Part shown: positions 4,931-19,559 of the stretch, in pieces
Numbering within the stretch: the first letter of the stretch is position 1
Layout: each line of letters begins with the position of its first letter
Virus record (IMG/VR): IMGVR_UViG_3300046314_000298
Direction: 5' to 3' (one strand)
DNA from: an uncultured virus (IMG/VR IMGVR_UViG_3300046314_000298)
Lineage: Duplodnaviria; Heunggongvirae; Uroviricota; Caudoviricetes
Length of the DNA: 20,000 nucleotides
Translations under genes and position numbers: made by a program
Notes under the pieces: model-generated
The model's database searches: none
What the model was told of the DNA's origin: nothing
What the model saw: the letters and a program-made list of their open reading frames with translations, nothing else

Positions 4931-6094
4931 TCAATAGCCCACAGGCCCTACAGTAGTAGCGTCTAACAGTATCAGATGTAACTTTAAGTTACGCACCCTA
5001 AGAAAAGGTTCCTGACCAGGAACTCTAGAAGATACAATAGCGTGTACTTCTGTATTGACATTTAAAAACCTAGGGTAAGCAACATTCTCTAAAGGTTCGG
5101 CATTATAACCTAAACCTTCAGGATCTTTAGACTGATTATAGAGAGTAGGTATAATCAGCTTACCTATATTTAAGTAATCGGGAACCGTTGATAATTCACC
5201 AGTGACAGGGTCTGTGTTATAGGACATATCACTTTGAAACAGACCCGGTACTTGGTTAAGAAGTACTTCCACTTGATCAAGACCCTCGTTACCTAATACT
5301 GGATATTCAGTTGTTATACTTGCGTCAACAACAAAACAGTCAAAAGGTATATAGAACTTATGTGTTCTATATAGAGTATCCATACTGATACCACCGTCAA
5401 AGTTTTCATAAAACTTAGGTGTCAAGTCTACAGTGTAAGGTATTCTTATCTGCTGGGTAGGGTGAGAGTGATCACCTTTAGCTGCCTCAAGTATTTCACC
5501 TGGATTAGGATAAACATTAGGGGCGGAAGGAGTACCTGAGAAAAAGGTAACTCCAGAACCAGTGCTTAGTCCGGCTATCTGTGCTTGCAATGTGGCTATC
5601 AATGCAAAAATATCTGCTATAGTCGTAGTCAATCCAGATACTTCAGATTGAGCGTGGGTGTGTAATACAGCAGCTTTACCCGCTAAGGCGTCCACTAAAC
5701 CTACTACTTCAGACAAAGCATGGTTGTGTACAACGGGTGACTTACTAGATAAAGCTGTGTCTAAGCCATCTACTTGAATCATAGGGTGATTATGACTGAC
5801 GTTAGCTTTAGTGGCTAAAGTGTCTAATAAACCTAAGATGTCTGCTACAGTGTATACATGGGTGTGATTGACATCCGCTTTATTCATTAAAGCGTTAACA
5901 ACAGCTGTGGATAAAGGTTTGGTAATATCTGAAGTGTTGTCTACATTACCCAACCCTACCATAGCCTTAGTGACTAAAGCAGCTATAGAGTTAAGTGTGA
6001 CTCTATAGTTCTCATTACCATATATGACAGCAGCTTGTTCTAAACCACTTAAGGCTGTCAACATTTCAAACTGACTTATTTTTCTATTAGCCAT
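4931..6094 (-). CDS. HxH-repeat fibre protein, paralog 1 (387 aa)
   Basis: MANRKISQF N-terminus; VGLGNVDNTSD motif; HTH/HNH/HNH/HTH repeats plus 'AAKGDHSHP'. The C-terminal domain is unrelated to that of paralog 2. Confidence 0.85.
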   Translation of the reverse strand: MANRKISQFEMLTALSGLEQAAVIYGNENYRVTLNSIAALVTKAMVGLGNVDNTSDITKPLSTAVVNALMNKADVNHTHVYTVADILGLLDTLATKANVSHNHPMIQVDGLDTALSSKSPVVHNHALSEVVGLVDALAGKAAVLHTHAQSEVSGLTTTIADIFALIATLQAQIAGLSTGSGVTFFSGTPSAPNVYPNPGEILEAAKGDHSHPTQQIRIPYTVDLTPKFYENFDGGISMDTLYRTHKFYIPFDCFVVDASITTEYPVLGNEGLDQVEVLLNQVPGLFQSDMSYNTDPVTGELSTVPDYLNIGKLIIPTLYNQSKDPEGLGYNAEPLENVAYPRFLNVNTEVHAIVSSRVPGQEPFLRVRNLKLHLILLDATTVGPVGY

Positions 6095-6120
6095 GATGAC
6101 TCTTTCCTATTTCGTGTTTA

Positions 6121-6153
6121 ATAGATACTAAGCCTTTACAGCTTAGTATCTAT
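6121..6153. terminator. Intergenic hairpin (terminator or processing site)
   Basis: Perfect 13-bp stem ATAGATACTAAGC / GCTTAGTATCTAT with a 7-nt loop. No long U-tract. Confidence 0.6.
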
Positions 6154-6160
6154 GTAAGAA

Positions 6161-6628
6161 TTATTCTGTTAACAGATATTCACCATTCTCGCCTAAGATA
6201 GGTGTGCCATCTTCAGCTAGGATTAAACTCATCATTTGTTCAGGACAATCATAAAGGAACTGTTCCTTCAGGTAACCTGACTCAAGATGATAAACGTCTA
6301 AGGTACCCAGAGTCACCCAAACTTCATCTTCAGATGTGGCGTTGTGATAAGGTGCGTTTACTTCCAGTTTAAAAGGAAGTAGATTATCGGCTTTACCTAT
6401 CTTTAAATAAATCCGCAAACGTAGAAAGTCATCTGCTCTTGTGGTGTATGCTTCAAAAGCAATAGGGTAATCAGCTTTTTTAGCGATGCAGATCATATCA
6501 AAATCTGTAACGCGTAGGTTTCTGTTAAACTGATTGTTGAACAGAGTCAACGCCATCAGTTTAATATGGTCATGTTCTTTCATCTGGACCTCTGTTAAAT
6601 AAGGTTGTCTTTGACTGATTACAATCAA
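6161..6628 (-). CDS. Hypothetical virion protein, possible fibre adaptor (start codon uncertain)
   Basis: 155-aa ORF with a TTG start. The C-terminal 'LILAEDGTPILGENGEYLLTE' motif is a type often seen next to phage fibre genes. Confidence 0.65.
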   Translation of the reverse strand: MIVISQRQPYLTEVQMKEHDHIKLMALTLFNNQFNRNLRVTDFDMICIAKKADYPIAFEAYTTRADDFLRLRIYLKIGKADNLLPFKLEVNAPYHNATSEDEVWVTLGTLDVYHLESGYLKEQFLYDCPEQMMSLILAEDGTPILGENGEYLLTE

Positions 6629-6689
6629 CTTCTGTAAACGATAAGAGTTATCGCTATAGTCAAAGGATTACTTTTTAAAGAGATGGAAC

Positions 6690-6734
6690 AAAAAAAAAAT
6701 AAAAAAGAGGTGCCCGAATTACCGGGCACCTCTT
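6690..6734 (-). terminator. Rho-independent terminator
   Basis: 12-bp perfect stem AAGAGGTGCCCG (6705-6716) / CGGGCACCTCTT (6723-6734), followed by a long T-tract on the minus strand. Confidence 0.9.
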
Positions 6735-6789
6735 AACCGAAGTAGAACAACCATTCTACTTCGGTCAGGGTGATTTCACGGACTTCCAT
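6733..6789 (-). CDS. Small ORF, 18-aa peptide MEVREITLTEVEWLFYFG
   Basis: AAGGAG Shine-Dalgarno (6795-6800) 5 nt before the ATG. The TAA stop overlaps the terminator stem. A promoter-like motif lies upstream. Confidence 0.6.
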   Translation of the reverse strand: MEVREITLTEVEWLFYFG

Positions 6790-6847
6790 GATAACTCCTT
6801 CAGCATAGCGTATATTCGAATGAATATTTGAACCTAAGCTCAAGTTA

Positions 6848-6864
6848 AGTATATGTGACTGAAA
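6848..6864 (-). promoter_or_regulatory. Putative early (virion RNAP) promoter
   Basis: The minus strand reads TTTCAGTCACATATACT, an imperfect match to the AT-rich TATATTAC-type early promoters of phiKZ-like phages. Confidence 0.45.
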
Positions 6865-6882
6865 TCTTTTACATGAGGATAA

Positions 6883-7134
6883 TCAAGGGTAGATCCATTT
6901 ATTGGCTTCCATGATACGGAAACTATAAACCACATTCTCAAATCGCTTCATGATCTGTTCATGAGTCTCACCCAGAACTTCTATGGCGGTGTTCACCCAC
7001 GAGTAATCGTAAGTATTACCATTTATAAGATCAAGAGCTGCTTTCTTGATAGTTGTGTAACCTACCACAGTAACCAAGATAAGGTTATCATTGGTTTCCA
7101 GTTGCTTCATCATACCTTGCATTGTAATCAACAT
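6883..7134 (-). CDS. Hypothetical protein (83 aa)
   Basis: ATG with AAGGAG 7 nt upstream; same strand as its neighbours. Confidence 0.75.
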   Translation of the reverse strand: MLITMQGMMKQLETNDNLILVTVVGYTTIKKAALDLINGNTYDYSWVNTAIEVLGETHEQIMKRFENVVYSFRIMEANKWIYP

Positions 7135-7154
7135 TTCTTTACTCCTTGGGATAT

Positions 7155-7188
7155 TACAGACACCAGCCTCTATGGGCTGGTGTCTGTA
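7155..7188. terminator. Intergenic hairpin
   Basis: 14-bp perfect stem TACAGACACCAGCC / GGCTGGTGTCTGTA directly after the dcd stop codon. Confidence 0.7.
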
Positions 7189-7194
7189 TGGGGT

Positions 7195-7854
7195 TTACAT
7201 AGGGGGGACAGGTTCGGCAGGTTGATTTTGATACTTACCATTCCGATCAGCATAGCTCACCAAACATTGCTCATCCGACTGGAAGAACTGAAGTTGAGTG
7301 ATGCCCATACCAGGATAGATGCGCACAGGAAGATCTGTGGTGTTGGTGATTTCCAGTGTAATGCTTCCAAACCAACCAGATTCAAGAGGTGTTACAGTCA
7401 CGATAATACCAGCTCTTGCCACAGTGGATTTACCCATGCAGACAACAGAGACATCACGAGGAACGGTCACTTTTTCGACGGTGTGTCCCAAACAAAAGCT
7501 CTTTGCTGGTAGTTCAATCCAAGCCAGGTCTTCAAAAGAAGTCAGTTCGCAAGTGTTAGCAAAGTCAGCAATGTCGATAGAGCGACCCAGCGTACTTGCC
7601 AATACAGGTGTATTAACAGACAGACCACCACCGGAGTTAGGACTGGTGCGTACTAGGTAAGCCTCATGTCCACGGAAGAACTTGAAGTTAGGACCCAGGC
7701 GTACATCGTAACCGTAAGAAGAAAGGCCAAAGCTAGGTACTTTCTTTTCCTCACCATGAACAACGATCTTGTTTTCATTGTCCATCACAAACGGAACAAT
7801 CATGTCCCGCAACAGAGAATTCTCACGAATCCATTTATCAGACTTGATGCTCAT
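7195..7854 (-). CDS. dcd: dCTP deaminase
   Basis: MSIKSDKWI start; SFGLSSYGYDVRLG; GKSTVARAGIIVTVTPLESGWFGSITLEITNTT; SYADRNGKYQNQ. All are characteristic of proteobacterial-type Dcd. Confidence 0.95.
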   Translation of the reverse strand: MSIKSDKWIRENSLLRDMIVPFVMDNENKIVVHGEEKKVPSFGLSSYGYDVRLGPNFKFFRGHEAYLVRTSPNSGGGLSVNTPVLASTLGRSIDIADFANTCELTSFEDLAWIELPAKSFCLGHTVEKVTVPRDVSVVCMGKSTVARAGIIVTVTPLESGWFGSITLEITNTTDLPVRIYPGMGITQLQFFQSDEQCLVSYADRNGKYQNQPAEPVPPM

Positions 7855-8245
7855 GTTTTCTTTTCCTTAAGATGGTTAATATGTCAGCTAAAGCATGTGC
7901 TTGGTTGACTGGTGTCGATGCAAATCTGTCTCTCAGACAATTGTTATGGTTGTAAGCTTGTATGTCAAGTTCTCTCAAAAGCTCAAGGTTATTAACACTC
8001 CAGCATTTCCAAAGATCGAGATACTCGTGATATAGATCGGTGTTTGGAATAAGACTCGGTTTACCTTTTCCCAAACGCCAGTTTATACCACCTGGATCCA
8101 TTCCTTTGACATCACATTGATAATGCATCTCTATACTTCTGCCGTCATACATGATGGCGTTAAAAGCAGAGAAACGTTTATCACCTTGGCTGCTTATTTC
8201 ATAACCCTCTGTTCTTGACCATCTTACGTCTGAATCGACTGACAT
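7838..8245 (-). CDS. Conserved phage protein, possibly NADAR-like (135 aa)
   Basis: GYEISSQGDKRFSAFNA...DGRSIEMHYQCDVKG...L.D.FA...NQAHALADIL, a motif set I recall from many lytic phages. The fold assignment is tentative. Confidence 0.6.
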   Translation of the reverse strand: MSVDSDVRWSRTEGYEISSQGDKRFSAFNAIMYDGRSIEMHYQCDVKGMDPGGINWRLGKGKPSLIPNTDLYHEYLDLWKCWSVNNLELLRELDIQAYNHNNCLRDRFASTPVNQAHALADILTILRKRKHEHQV

Positions 8246-13917: not shown

Positions 13918-14442
13918 ATGGGTATATTCAATCTGAGTAATGTATCGGAACCTGCACAGAAGCCTGTGTTGCAGTCTGATAATGAGTTTAAAGCTGGTCA
14001 AATGGTAAAACCACAAGAGCCTGAAGCTACACAAAAGAGTCAGGATGGTGAGTCTAAGAATAAGACTGTGGTGATGACGGGTCCTTTGAGCAAGATCTAT
14101 AGTGAAGCTCTGCATCTTGTGTATGGTAAAGAATCTATTGACATGGTAGATCCTGATGAAATCGATGGTGTTGGTGGTGTGACATACGGCGAGGAAGATA
14201 AAGAACTGTATGTTTATACCACCGATGGTGATAAGATGGATGGTAGTGAGATGGTAGACGCTGGTGATAAGCTTAGGGTGGCTCTAGACAGTAAAAAGTA
14301 TAAGAAAGTACTTTTAGCTGTAGAGTGTAAAACGCCTAGTAGAAAAGTGGCTTTACTGCACGAGATGGCTACCAGCATGGGTGTAGATGTGGTATTCAGC
14401 AGAAGAACTGCTATAGAGAGTATGAAAGCTTATTTGTCATGA
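13918..14442 (+). CDS. Hypothetical phiKZ-like protein, probably virion-associated (174 aa; start re-called)
   Basis: ATG at 13918 with GGAG upstream. Low-complexity N-terminus followed by the motif GPLSKIYSEALHLVY. ATGA overlap with the next gene. Confidence 0.7.
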   Translation: MGIFNLSNVSEPAQKPVLQSDNEFKAGQMVKPQEPEATQKSQDGESKNKTVVMTGPLSKIYSEALHLVYGKESIDMVDPDEIDGVGGVTYGEEDKELYVYTTDGDKMDGSEMVDAGDKLRVALDSKKYKKVLLAVECKTPSRKVALLHEMATSMGVDVVFSRRTAIESMKAYLS

Positions 14443-15656
14443 AAAATCTTTATGAAGCTTTTCAGAAAAACTTTAATCACGTTAAGTTTGATGGTAGATT
14501 GGCTGATCGGCTTTATAAATTTCAAATCGGGTATATCAACCAAAACTCTGAACATTTGGAGTTCTTTGGTGGGAATCTGTTGGGTGTACAGGTAGTTAGA
14601 TTCAAAGATAGTGATTTGAAGAGATTTTATGAAGAGGTGTTAGATGTTGATTTGAGTATATTGACTGAAGATATACGAAGTCTTGACACCATAGATCACA
14701 GCCATAAGGTCGGTAGCGACATACTTAACTTAACCTGCATGTACTTGATACACGGGTTTCTGAGAAGTAATTTAGTTAATGAGACCAAGAAGAAAAGAGC
14801 TACCTATGACGTGGCTGTTATATTTTTCTGTAGATGTTTAGCTGCTTTACTGAGTCATTACTTTAAATATCCTGCTGATCCTCATGTGGCTCAGATGACT
14901 TATGCTAATTTAAGTAATAAGTATCTCATTAAGAAACTAGGTAGCTGGCATGCTGTGGTAGACTACAGATCTAAAGAGATGACAGGTAAGGATAGCATAC
15001 ACCTTTCTAATCTGTATAAATTCTCTGATGACAGCACAATCACTTATGCTGTTTCTGATGGTCAAGGTCGTATCAGAGATATGATCAAGAACTATTATGC
15101 TGAGTTTGCTTTGGTGTTAGAGTCTGGTGGTAGAATCAACACCACAGGCGGTACTTACTTTGATGCAGATGGTGAAGAGACATTGAGGGATAAAACCCGT
15201 TCTGTGGAATCTGATGTTCAGTACATGCTTCAGATACTGAGCGATAGAAACTCTTTCATCAAACATGATTTGGTGCAAGTCATCGTTGGTATCAACAAGA
15301 ATACATCAGCTAAGATGTTAAACAGTGTTCTTCAACTGGTGCATGACGGAAGTATGAATGAACATTCTTCTCTGATGCAGGATTTTGTTCAGAGGGTGGT
15401 GATATATAGTTACCATCTGTTGAATCAAAGTCAGATAGAGAACATGAGAGACTACCCTAAGATTCTCACCAATCTGAAGAATTTATATCTATCCACACGG
15501 TCTACCGACATAGAGTTGTTAAAGATCAGGGATATGGGTGCTAAGATAGTTAAGCTTTCAAGTAAGAGTAAATTCTCTGAAAGTTTGATGATGGCTACTC
15601 GCACTTCTTTGATTCTCTACATCTGTTTAAGGGCTTTGATAGGACGAAATAGTTGA
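14439..15656 (+). CDS. Conserved phiKZ-like virion structural protein (gp32-like, tentative; 405 aa)
   Basis: The motifs EHLEFFGGNLLGV, LSNKYLIKKLGSW and DGQGRIRDMIKN match a core protein I recall from phiKZ-like phages. Confidence 0.7.
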   Translation: MKNLYEAFQKNFNHVKFDGRLADRLYKFQIGYINQNSEHLEFFGGNLLGVQVVRFKDSDLKRFYEEVLDVDLSILTEDIRSLDTIDHSHKVGSDILNLTCMYLIHGFLRSNLVNETKKKRATYDVAVIFFCRCLAALLSHYFKYPADPHVAQMTYANLSNKYLIKKLGSWHAVVDYRSKEMTGKDSIHLSNLYKFSDDSTITYAVSDGQGRIRDMIKNYYAEFALVLESGGRINTTGGTYFDADGEETLRDKTRSVESDVQYMLQILSDRNSFIKHDLVQVIVGINKNTSAKMLNSVLQLVHDGSMNEHSSLMQDFVQRVVIYSYHLLNQSQIENMRDYPKILTNLKNLYLSTRSTDIELLKIRDMGAKIVKLSSKSKFSESLMMATRTSLILYICLRALIGRNS

Positions 15657-16093: not shown

Positions 16094-16106
16094 TCGTTTC
16101 AATTTG

Positions 16107-16143
16107 ATACACACCAGCCTCACAAGGGCTGGTGTGTATTTTA
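16107..16143 (+). terminator. Hairpin / Rho-independent terminator
   Basis: 13-bp stem ATACACACCAGCC / GGCTGGTGTGTAT followed by a T-rich run. Confidence 0.75.
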
Positions 16144-18383: not shown

Positions 18384-19559
18384 TTAAAACATCTCAGCTT
18401 TCATGAGGTCGATTTGGAGTTCGATGGACTTGTAGTCTTCATCCCCAATGGTGGAATCTACCACATACCCACGAGGGGTGATGGCCAAGTTTACAACATG
18501 TTCGTGCGCAAGACGAATCAAGCGCATAGACCAGAAGTAATCATCCGTCATGTTAGTGAGGATGGTCTTGAAGGTACGACCGTGTGCACGGAAGTACTTG
18601 GTATTGATACTACCGTTGATTTTGTGTTGAACAAACCGCACGTAATCTCGGAAGTTTTCAACATCATTTTCACGCAGATTACCCTGCTCATCAATCACGT
18701 TGCGTGGTTTGAATTTTCGATTGGGTGAAACAATCGAAGCTTCCGCCAGCTTCATGTTGGTGTACAGGAGTACCAGTTGCTTCAGAGTCAGATCCTTCTC
18801 ATAAATGCGGTTGACTGCATAAGACAGTTGATCGATCACAGAGAACAGAGCATTCTCTGTAGGGATAAGGTCATCGCAGACTTTGTGGAACAACGAAGGT
18901 GCTGACATATAGTCATGACCTTCATTATCCACCCAATAGAAGTCCATGTTCTCCGGATACTCTAGTTTGACATTACCAAAGATACGAGCCAAGATGTCAT
19001 CAGGTCCTTCCACCTTACGCATTCCAATTATAACATATTTTTCAATGTTAGTCGGTATGGTCTTGATAGAGCTGTAAACAACGCAGTTAGCCGTGTTGCT
19101 TTTATAGACAGCAGCAGCCAGCATGGCATCCAAGCTAAAATGGTTATAAACCACACAGACTGCTGGTTTCCGCATCATGTCCACTTTTGGTTGCGGTATT
19201 GGTTTGTCGACGGTAGGTGCTTCCTCAATGTAATCAATCAAGACCACACCAGAAGAAACAGACCGACCGTGTTGATGAATGCCGTTGATCCACCATTCAT
19301 TACGACCGTCGACGTGACCATCGCTATAAATAACCGCCGGACCGTCTGCGCGATGGCGTTCGCCGTTAACCCACCATGCCTTATACCCACCACACGCTTC
19401 TTCAACAGCTGGGCCATCTATGCGATGTCGTTTACCATGACGATACCAAGCTTTGAAACCGCTTGTCATTTCAACAGCCGGACCGTCTTCTCTGTGATAT
19501 TCCCCATTCTGATACCAATGAACATCACCGTTCGCACTTACAGTTTTTCCGTTTTCCAT
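18384..19559 (-). CDS. HRxDGPA-repeat protein fused to a degenerate DHH-like domain (391 aa)
   Basis: Three W(Y/W)xxGxxHRxDGPAV repeats at the N-terminus. 'VVYNHFSLDAMLAAAVY' resembles DHH phosphoesterase motif I. Confidence 0.65.
   Translation of the reverse strand: MENGKTVSANGDVHWYQNGEYHREDGPAVEMTSGFKAWYRHGKRHRIDGPAVEEACGGYKAWWVNGERHRADGPAVIYSDGHVDGRNEWWINGIHQHGRSVSSGVVLIDYIEEAPTVDKPIPQPKVDMMRKPAVCVVYNHFSLDAMLAAAVYKSNTANCVVYSSIKTIPTNIEKYVIIGMRKVEGPDDILARIFGNVKLEYPENMDFYWVDNEGHDYMSAPSLFHKVCDDLIPTENALFSVIDQLSYAVNRIYEKDLTLKQLVLLYTNMKLAEASIVSPNRKFKPRNVIDEQGNLRENDVENFRDYVRFVQHKINGSINTKYFRAHGRTFKTILTNMTDDYFWSMRLIRLAHEHVVNLAITPRGYVVDSTIGDEDYKSIELQIDLMKAEMF

Follow-up and report, generated by a model that had tools for sequence, protein, structure and literature searches.

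The window analysed here is a 20,000-nucleotide stretch of DNA from an uncultured tailed phage. Between ORFs of 83 and 140 residues on its minus strand lies a compact unit comprising, in order, an early promoter motif, a leader, a Shine-Dalgarno (SD) sequence, an 18-codon ORF and an intrinsic terminator (Table 1). A first-pass annotation had described an AAGGAG ribosome-binding site, an 18-codon ORF, a 12-bp inverted repeat and a terminator at this locus, and all were recovered on the minus strand. The early-promoter-like motif that it placed at 6848-6864 does belong to an early-promoter family, but the interval was drawn too short, as the motif spans about 6873-6838. The description of the unit as stand-alone holds insofar as it has its own promoter and terminator. 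However, no terminator was seen between the end of the 83-residue ORF (6883) and the promoter, so transcripts from upstream may also enter the unit. In the related genome G006, a hairpin and U run lie directly in front of the unit, and the gene upstream has its own signals before and after it, so that the unit is insulated on both sides there.

Table 1. Features of the unit and its flanking genes in the window.
Feature	Position	Strand	Remarks
83-aa ORF upstream of the unit	6883..7134	-	no family found; a 208-220-aa repeat protein gene stands in its place in G006
Early promoter motif (virion-RNA-polymerase type)	6838..6873	-	PWM scan; repeated family
5' leader, predicted weak hairpin	6801..6840	-	folding; putative start site near 6840
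Shine-Dalgarno AAGGAG	6795..6800	-	5-nt spacer to ATG 6789-6787
18-codon ORF MEVREITLTEVEWLFYFG and TAA 6735-6733	6733..6789	-	2263 Da, net charge -3
Small 5-6-bp hairpin over AUG	6776..6791	-	predicted in all three genomes
In-ORF hairpin	6734..6767	-	perfect 12-bp core 6765-6754 / 6747-6736, 6-nt loop
Intrinsic terminator with U run (13-bp stem, 6734-6705)	6697..6734	-	terminator scan of the window
140-aa ORF downstream, before tail-fibre genes	6161..6583	-	conserved; synteny anchor

The core of the in-ORF hairpin pairs the codons for TEVE with those for FYFG, and the hairpin folds as 14-15 bp when G-U pairs are counted. The terminator stem begins inside the stop codon and heads the list of 17 terminator-like sites detected in the window. 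Each record has one copy of the unit. When five records totalling 661,884 bases were searched with a covariance model, no paralogue appeared apart from the three copies used for training and the strands opposite them (the next best hit scored 20.5 bits), and a search of five unrelated large contigs, run without a positive control, gave no match. Elsewhere in the window, hairpins at 7150-7187 and 16106-16140 share a common core, CACCAGCC...GGCTGGTG; the former lies between the dCTP deaminase gene and the 83-residue ORF and has no U run.

Genome-wide comparisons used G001, a virus record identical to the window over 6100-7900. G004 overlaps G001 by 28,835 bases at 100%, and the joined G001/G004 contigs are referred to as the own phage. 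A 622-residue protein of G001 matched solved structures of chimallin/PhuN (E 5e-27 to 3e-20; chimallin 9e-21), which marks the phage as nucleus-forming and phiKZ-like. The window encodes the PhuZ tubulin (phrog_4733, E 8e-88) together with the large terminase, dCTP deaminase and tail-fibre-like proteins. Judged by its encoded proteins, this is a jumbo phage carrying both chimallin and PhuZ, as expected of a member of the Chimalliviridae. Its nearest cultured records are distant, with 32-36% identity for a 405-residue protein at 14439-15656, and are led by Burkholderia and Ralstonia phages. The dCTP deaminase of the G002 phage (L002 5001-6659) contains an in-frame insert of ~333 residues that the window copy (7195-7854) lacks; the insert starts with Cys, ends with His-Asn, has an HNH-like core and is intein-like by eye.

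All 24 sequencing runs listed were freshwater metagenomes. Among the assembled contigs of three RNA runs and one DNA run from this list, none spans 6712-6812, the DNA run included, which makes the lack of RNA coverage uninformative. Short matches of these contigs at 6837-6878 correspond to other promoter copies. Two RNA contigs stop at 6644 and 6647, upstream of the 140-residue gene, but the DNA run is discontinuous there too, and these ends were given no weight.

The promoter motif occurs once in the window, against 0 expected from 200 shuffles. A position weight matrix (PWM) seeded from nine distinct sites returned sites scoring >17 in G001 (14), G002 (18), G004 (18) and G003 (14), with 0 in each reversed control, and 24 sites in G006 (control 0). 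In the joined own-phage contigs the unit's site ranks first of 27, a rank that is partly circular because the training set of the matrix included this site. No sigma-70 site was detected on the minus strand between 6900 and 6790, and the whole window contained 55 such sites versus 51.9 by chance. The early motif described in PMC7598289 has an AT-rich core at about -10. By this reference the RNA would extend from near 6840 to near 6697.

Promoters of this family are also found in front of remnants of four codons, six codons or none, so the case for the unit rests on conservation and not on its anatomy. Such emptied cassettes, with near-consensus promoters and full leaders, were seen at G004 72145 and 8533 (minus strand) and at G006 68100 (plus strand), and hold four codons, nothing or six codons. 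A second micro-gene cassette with a promoter of this family lies at G004 44814-44731 (minus strand) and G002 49216-49299 (plus strand). Its hydrophobic peptide of 28/30 residues is 79% identical between the two, and the cassette has a 9-bp in-ORF hairpin and a terminator-like stem; the G006 fragment contains no match. In G006, an enlarged family of repeat proteins, one with a weak DUF6745 match, sits behind near-identical early promoter-leader modules (L047 3072-3698; 32117, 32826, 33388, 68323, 73108, 97096 and 113015). Relatives of these proteins are encoded in the window at 18384-19559.

We compared the unit across three genomes, the own phage, G002 and G006, the first two of which are nearly identical. 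The G006 locus, L047, was found through its 140-residue downstream protein (67% identical), one of seven homologues at 54-100% identity; five of the others are protein records with no DNA attached. Both the ORF and the hairpin, whose conservation in relatives the first-pass annotation had proposed as a check, are kept in the two relatives at the same genomic place. Around the locus, G002 shares about 92% nucleotide identity with the window, and its ORF differs by a single base (R4H), leaving 17 of 18 residues identical. This sole change is non-synonymous, yet improves a base pair. The G006 ORF encodes MEAYEIILTEEEWNFFFG, a peptide of the same length with 12 of 18 residues identical. There the upstream gene encodes a different protein from the 83-residue ORF. 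The promoter belongs to the same family, the leader has diverged and carries a 1-nt indel, and the terminator has another sequence but the same architecture. By contrast with the indels in leader and terminator, the ORF is free of indels and stops across the genomes. The SD, spacing, start, frame and stop are fixed in all three, with 18 identical nucleotides running from the SD into codon 3. The terminator loop (window 6717-6722; L002 about 7133-7138) appears in G002 as the reverse complement of the window sequence, the kind of micro-inversion that template switching typically leaves.

Own phage and G006 share 63 reciprocal best hits with a median amino-acid identity of 72% and a pS of 0.74, and 46% of four-fold sites are identical (n=5508). 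G006 is near saturation at synonymous sites relative to the own phage. Against the 46% four-fold baseline, the 40 of 54 ORF bases kept in G006 exceed expectation (binomial P 3e-5). They resemble 18-codon windows of core genes, in which the median is 39 of 54 (n=1072). Among the own-phage long-leader early ORFs of >10 residues, three of eight were matched in G006, at 67% (the unit's ORF), 46% and 37%; as G006 is a 43%-complete fragment, the absent early genes may sit in its missing part. The ORF has a pN of 0.22 versus a pS of 0.52, values based on only nine and five changes. At unpaired ORF positions alone, 11 of 16 are conserved, which is not significant (P 0.06). Within the 6-nt hairpin loop the Trp codon is wholly kept and the next codon wholly changed, and Leu8 is retained despite two base changes that in G006 lengthen the stem. 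Both the peptide and the RNA fold look to be under constraint.

The predicted RNA (6697-6840) folds at -62 kcal/mol (z -8.5), which 0 of 200 shuffles equalled, and the ORF alone at -23.3 kcal/mol (z -5.3). Synonymous recodings of the window peptide folded as well in 10 of 3000 cases, and those of the other two ORFs in 1 and 5 of 3000. The predicted probability that the AUG is unpaired was 0.00, 0.00 and 0.19 in the three genomes. The hairpin over the AUG shows two one-sided G-U changes and one lost pair across the genomes. In the 14-bp in-ORF stem one pair has switched from U-A to A-U on both sides and two more show G-U changes; in G006 this stem is a perfect one of 16 bp. The 22 named pairs of these two helices comprise 14 invariant, four one-sided, two double-sided and two that are broken in some sequence; 95.5% of cells are paired. 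All four one-sided changes are G-U on the sense strand, and the sense strand out-folds the antisense in all three genomes. A DNA operator palindrome was rejected, as the G-U changes favour a sense RNA. Taken by itself the covariation falls short of significance, as only three sequences were compared and 47 of 500 shuffles reached its score. Of the two double-sided pairs, one is separated by a mismatch from the stem of the window and falls outside it. V11E together with Y16F is precisely the pair-keeping change, so RNA pairing overrides residue 11. Glu and Phe codons, like Val and Tyr codons, pair by the nature of the genetic code.

Folding of early coding regions was assessed in 57-nt windows of real genes versus synonymous shuffles, with 45 randomly drawn other genes of each genome as comparison. 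Early genes of the own phage folded at -18.0 kcal/mol versus -13.1 when shuffled (7 of 7 genes), and those of G002 at -17.4 versus -13.0 (8 of 8 genes). Other genes gave -9.8 versus -8.5 and -10.1 versus -8.7, respectively. In G006 the effect was weak (-13.0 versus -11.7; 8 of 10 genes). The excess amounts to about -5 kcal/mol per 57 nt in the early genes of the own phage and G002, and to about -1 to -1.6 elsewhere. The unit sits in the upper tail, with 8.6% of own-phage early windows reaching -23.3. In G006 only 3% of early windows reach -20, yet the unit's hairpin is kept there. The hairpin, to which the first-pass annotation had drawn attention, is indeed conserved and in the upper tail, but it is less distinctive than it seems, because folding is the rule among the coding regions that follow such promoters in this phage. 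The hairpin is, by that token, partly the house style of these mRNAs. Such folding possibly stabilises early mRNA that is uncoupled from translation, or hides it from RNA-targeting defences.

The three peptides have a net charge of -3 to -5, a mass of 2.2-2.3 kDa and a GRAVY of 0.03 to 0.38. Type I membrane toxins form hydrophobic, often cationic transmembrane helices, and we rejected this class in view of the peptide's acidity and these GRAVY values. The peptide contains an L-T-E-x-E-W stretch, which we take to be a helix-start motif; the pattern also occurs inside unrelated phage proteins. On a helical wheel, W13, Y/F16 and F17 fall on one face (240-340 degrees). Both radical substitutions lie off this face (V11E at 100 degrees, L14N at 40 degrees), and the conserved F15, at 140 degrees, lies on the otherwise variable side.

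Searches for relatives of the peptide gave no match in Pfam, NCBIfam or PHROGs, where power is low at 18 residues. At this length power was also low in 50,697 cultured phage records, which held no sequence relative, and in a protein collection and the ESM Atlas, which held no peptide match. The PDB contained no homologue of the peptide, its one match at E 2.8 being a chance hit. Rfam returned 16 matches at E up to 10 over 6000-7500, all far below the gathering score. A scan of viral sequences with the hairpin pattern found one locus. The C-terminal codon pattern occurred at 12 loci, two of which were the unit and ten of which had, by eye, neither an SD-AUG nor the hairpin. The E-I-x-L-T-E-x-E-W pattern occurred at 108 viral loci in 66 contexts, only two of which were the unit. 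A metagenome scan recovered the G002 contig only, again, and a genome scan one spurious short match. In the part of the literature that was searched, neither a peptide of this kind nor the folding of early mRNAs of nucleus-forming phages was found described.

The unit is most likely a micro-gene without known family that belongs to the known class of jumbo-phage early small genes. With the early small genes that the virion RNA polymerase of phiKZ-type Chimalliviridae transcribes, as portrayed in PMC7598289 and PMC13282480, it shares the setting of chimallin and PhuZ and the repeated AT-rich motif. It likewise shares the monocistronic arrangement of promoter, ribosome-binding site, ORF and terminator without a known family. 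It differs from them in having only 18 codons and in the joint conservation of frame and in-ORF hairpin. For phiKZ itself, the transcriptome study in PMC8244752 reports that all eight predicted small ORFs of 30-150 bp were discarded on inspection.

Other readings of the locus were weighed against a translated micro-gene. That the ~140-nt folded RNA is what matters, as a trans-acting sRNA or protein decoy with an incidental or secondary peptide, seems to us unlikely, though it deserves serious attention. Six of the 22 named pairs vary yet stay paired, and 95.5% of cells are paired. Sense folds better than antisense in the three genomes, synonymous recodings seldom match the fold, and G006 keeps the hairpin though its early genes barely out-fold shuffles. 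In addition, phiKZ makes structured early and UTR-derived ncRNAs that, according to PMC8545117 and PMC10914365, are likewise short (100-200 nt) and terminator-ended. In both sources, however, those RNAs are defined by the absence of an SD-led ORF, whereas in the unit a consensus SD, the AUG and the frame persist across the three genomes. The SD, spacing and AUG are identical although the SD is paired only in the window and G002 folds, and the hairpin loop, the likely seed, varies between genomes. The covariation score that 47 of 500 shuffles equal and the double-sided pair outside the window's stem weigh on the same side, as do the lack of a gathering-score match in Rfam and a search of the phage's own contigs that yielded no notable complementary match for a trans-acting sRNA. 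A structural remnant, in which a promoter-leader cassette minus most of its gene persists as a terminator or insulator with two hairpins, separating the early/middle block from the tail genes, strikes us as improbable. Its corollary, that the apparent compensation reflects template switching between hairpin arms, is to us no less so. Empty and 4-6-codon cassettes do occur behind the same promoters, codons 9-12 recur in reverse complement as the C-terminal codons, and the inverted terminator loop is a footprint indicating that template switching acts at this locus. The upstream gene has been swapped between lineages, as at the PeSL cassettes of T4-type phages, which according to PMC2839356 also combine repeated early promoter modules at gene-swap points with remnants and empty cassettes. 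A PeSL cassette is nonetheless a sigma-70-like early promoter joined to a terminator stem-loop, the unit's promoter is not sigma-70-like, and the unit differs further in its single-copy hairpin inside the ORF and in a payload that is conserved rather than shuffled. An insulator would have no need of a near-consensus promoter, an SD, an AUG and an 18-codon frame fixed across saturated synonymous divergence. Arm copying does not yield changes of the G-U type, the in-ORF hairpin has no U run, and no longer parent protein was found among the 108 pattern loci or in four genomes.

A more specific proposal makes the peptide a core-less mimic of a double-glycine leader. It would occupy the groove of the C39 peptidase in peptidase-containing ABC transporters of the host and so prevent bacteriocins or peptide signals from being exported. 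If true, this would be a phage decoy, truncated at the first glycine and hence uncleavable, and translated in the first minutes after injection from an mRNA that its own hairpins stabilise; we hold it to be a long shot. Its appeal lies in the register LSX2ELX2IXGG of class II bacteriocin and microcin leaders given in PMC7494827, which both peptide types fit as L8-T9-x-x-E12-W13-x-x-Y/F16-x-G18, sharing the L-T-x-x-E-hydrophobic-x-x-hydrophobic-x-G arrangement. With G18 as position -2, L8, T9 and E12 of all three peptides fall at -12, -11 and -8, and a length of 18 agrees with the 15-18-residue signals mentioned in PMC10233263. The relaxed pattern had 0 hits in 192,964 residues of four phage proteomes, its first half 71, but the pattern was loosened after the peptide was known. 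PMC10885120 gives L, I, V, M or A as the usual residues at -7 and -4; here these positions are taken by W13 and Y/F16, which are hydrophobic but aromatic. A second Gly and a core are absent, a single Gly being followed by TAA in the three genomes. No Pfam or NCBIfam leader model matched, and the first half is a generic helix start of unrelated phage proteins. The peptide fails as a member of the double-glycine leader class. An attenuator classically consists of a promoter, a short ORF with many aromatic codons, a hairpin and a terminator, and all of these are present in that order. Ribosome stalling at W, F or Y codons, of the pheL/trpL type, might then control read-through into the 140-residue and tail-fibre genes. 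We rejected this reading, which has next to no credibility in our view. Pairing of the second arm with the terminator 5' arm yields -5.4 to -7.5 kcal/mol versus -20.7 to -24.4 for the terminator. Blocking the ORF in the fold test left terminator pairing unaffected, and no competitive antiterminator emerged. Early transcription in a vesicle away from host machinery, as depicted in PMC13282480, also speaks against it. Equally far-fetched is an RNA that CsrA/RsmA controls or that titrates CsrA, for which the start codon lies in a CANGGANG word beside an SD with ANGGA. The stretch CAUGGAAG is identical in the three genomes and matches the high-affinity word quoted in PMC4894983. The CANGGANG word is nevertheless predicted within a stem rather than a hexaloop, and it results from C-AUG-GAA-G alone. 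There are only two ANGGA words, 6 nt apart end to start, and ~18 nt is quoted as optimal for the dimer. An Rsm sponge, that is, an sRNA titrating CsrA/Rsm through several GGA words in hairpin loops, was rejected on the same two grounds, the paucity of ANGGA words and the predicted pairing of the CANGGANG one.

By these comparisons the unit is a real, selected element. Most likely it is an early micro-gene that is translated and whose mRNA fold has been selected along with it. Beyond this, we lean, with somewhat more belief than doubt, towards a real early micro-gene whose folded RNA would encode an acidic peptide that docks its aromatic helix face on a host protein. According to PMC13282480, phages of this class have their early genes transcribed by the polymerase that they inject, within a membrane vesicle keeping phage and host machinery apart, and the transcripts are still exposed to RNA-targeting defences. 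Right after injection, the virion RNA polymerase would make an RNA of ~140 nt from the early promoter to the terminator. Made apart from ribosomes, this RNA is predicted to fold nearly end to end, through leader, start-codon hairpin, in-ORF hairpin and terminator. Such a fold may protect the RNA en route to the cytoplasm and render it long-lived, while the AUG hairpin would throttle translation initiation. Host ribosomes would then produce the acidic 18-residue peptide, which would most likely bind a hydrophobic groove of a host protein and act as a competitive inhibitor in host takeover or defence evasion. The groove of a larger protein appears the most plausible partner because the peptide is acidic and carries one aromatic helix face, and the early timing suggests a host target.

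The function of small early genes in jumbo phages is treated as an open question in PMC13282480. At 18 codons, the unit falls below the working length of gene callers. Its conservation equals that of core genes and exceeds that of the other early accessory genes open to comparison. Should the peptide prove inhibitory, it would provide a ready-made binding motif and an example of a very small host-takeover peptide from a phage. The locus also points to a wider trait, namely that the earliest mRNAs of a nucleus-forming phage have strongly folded coding regions.
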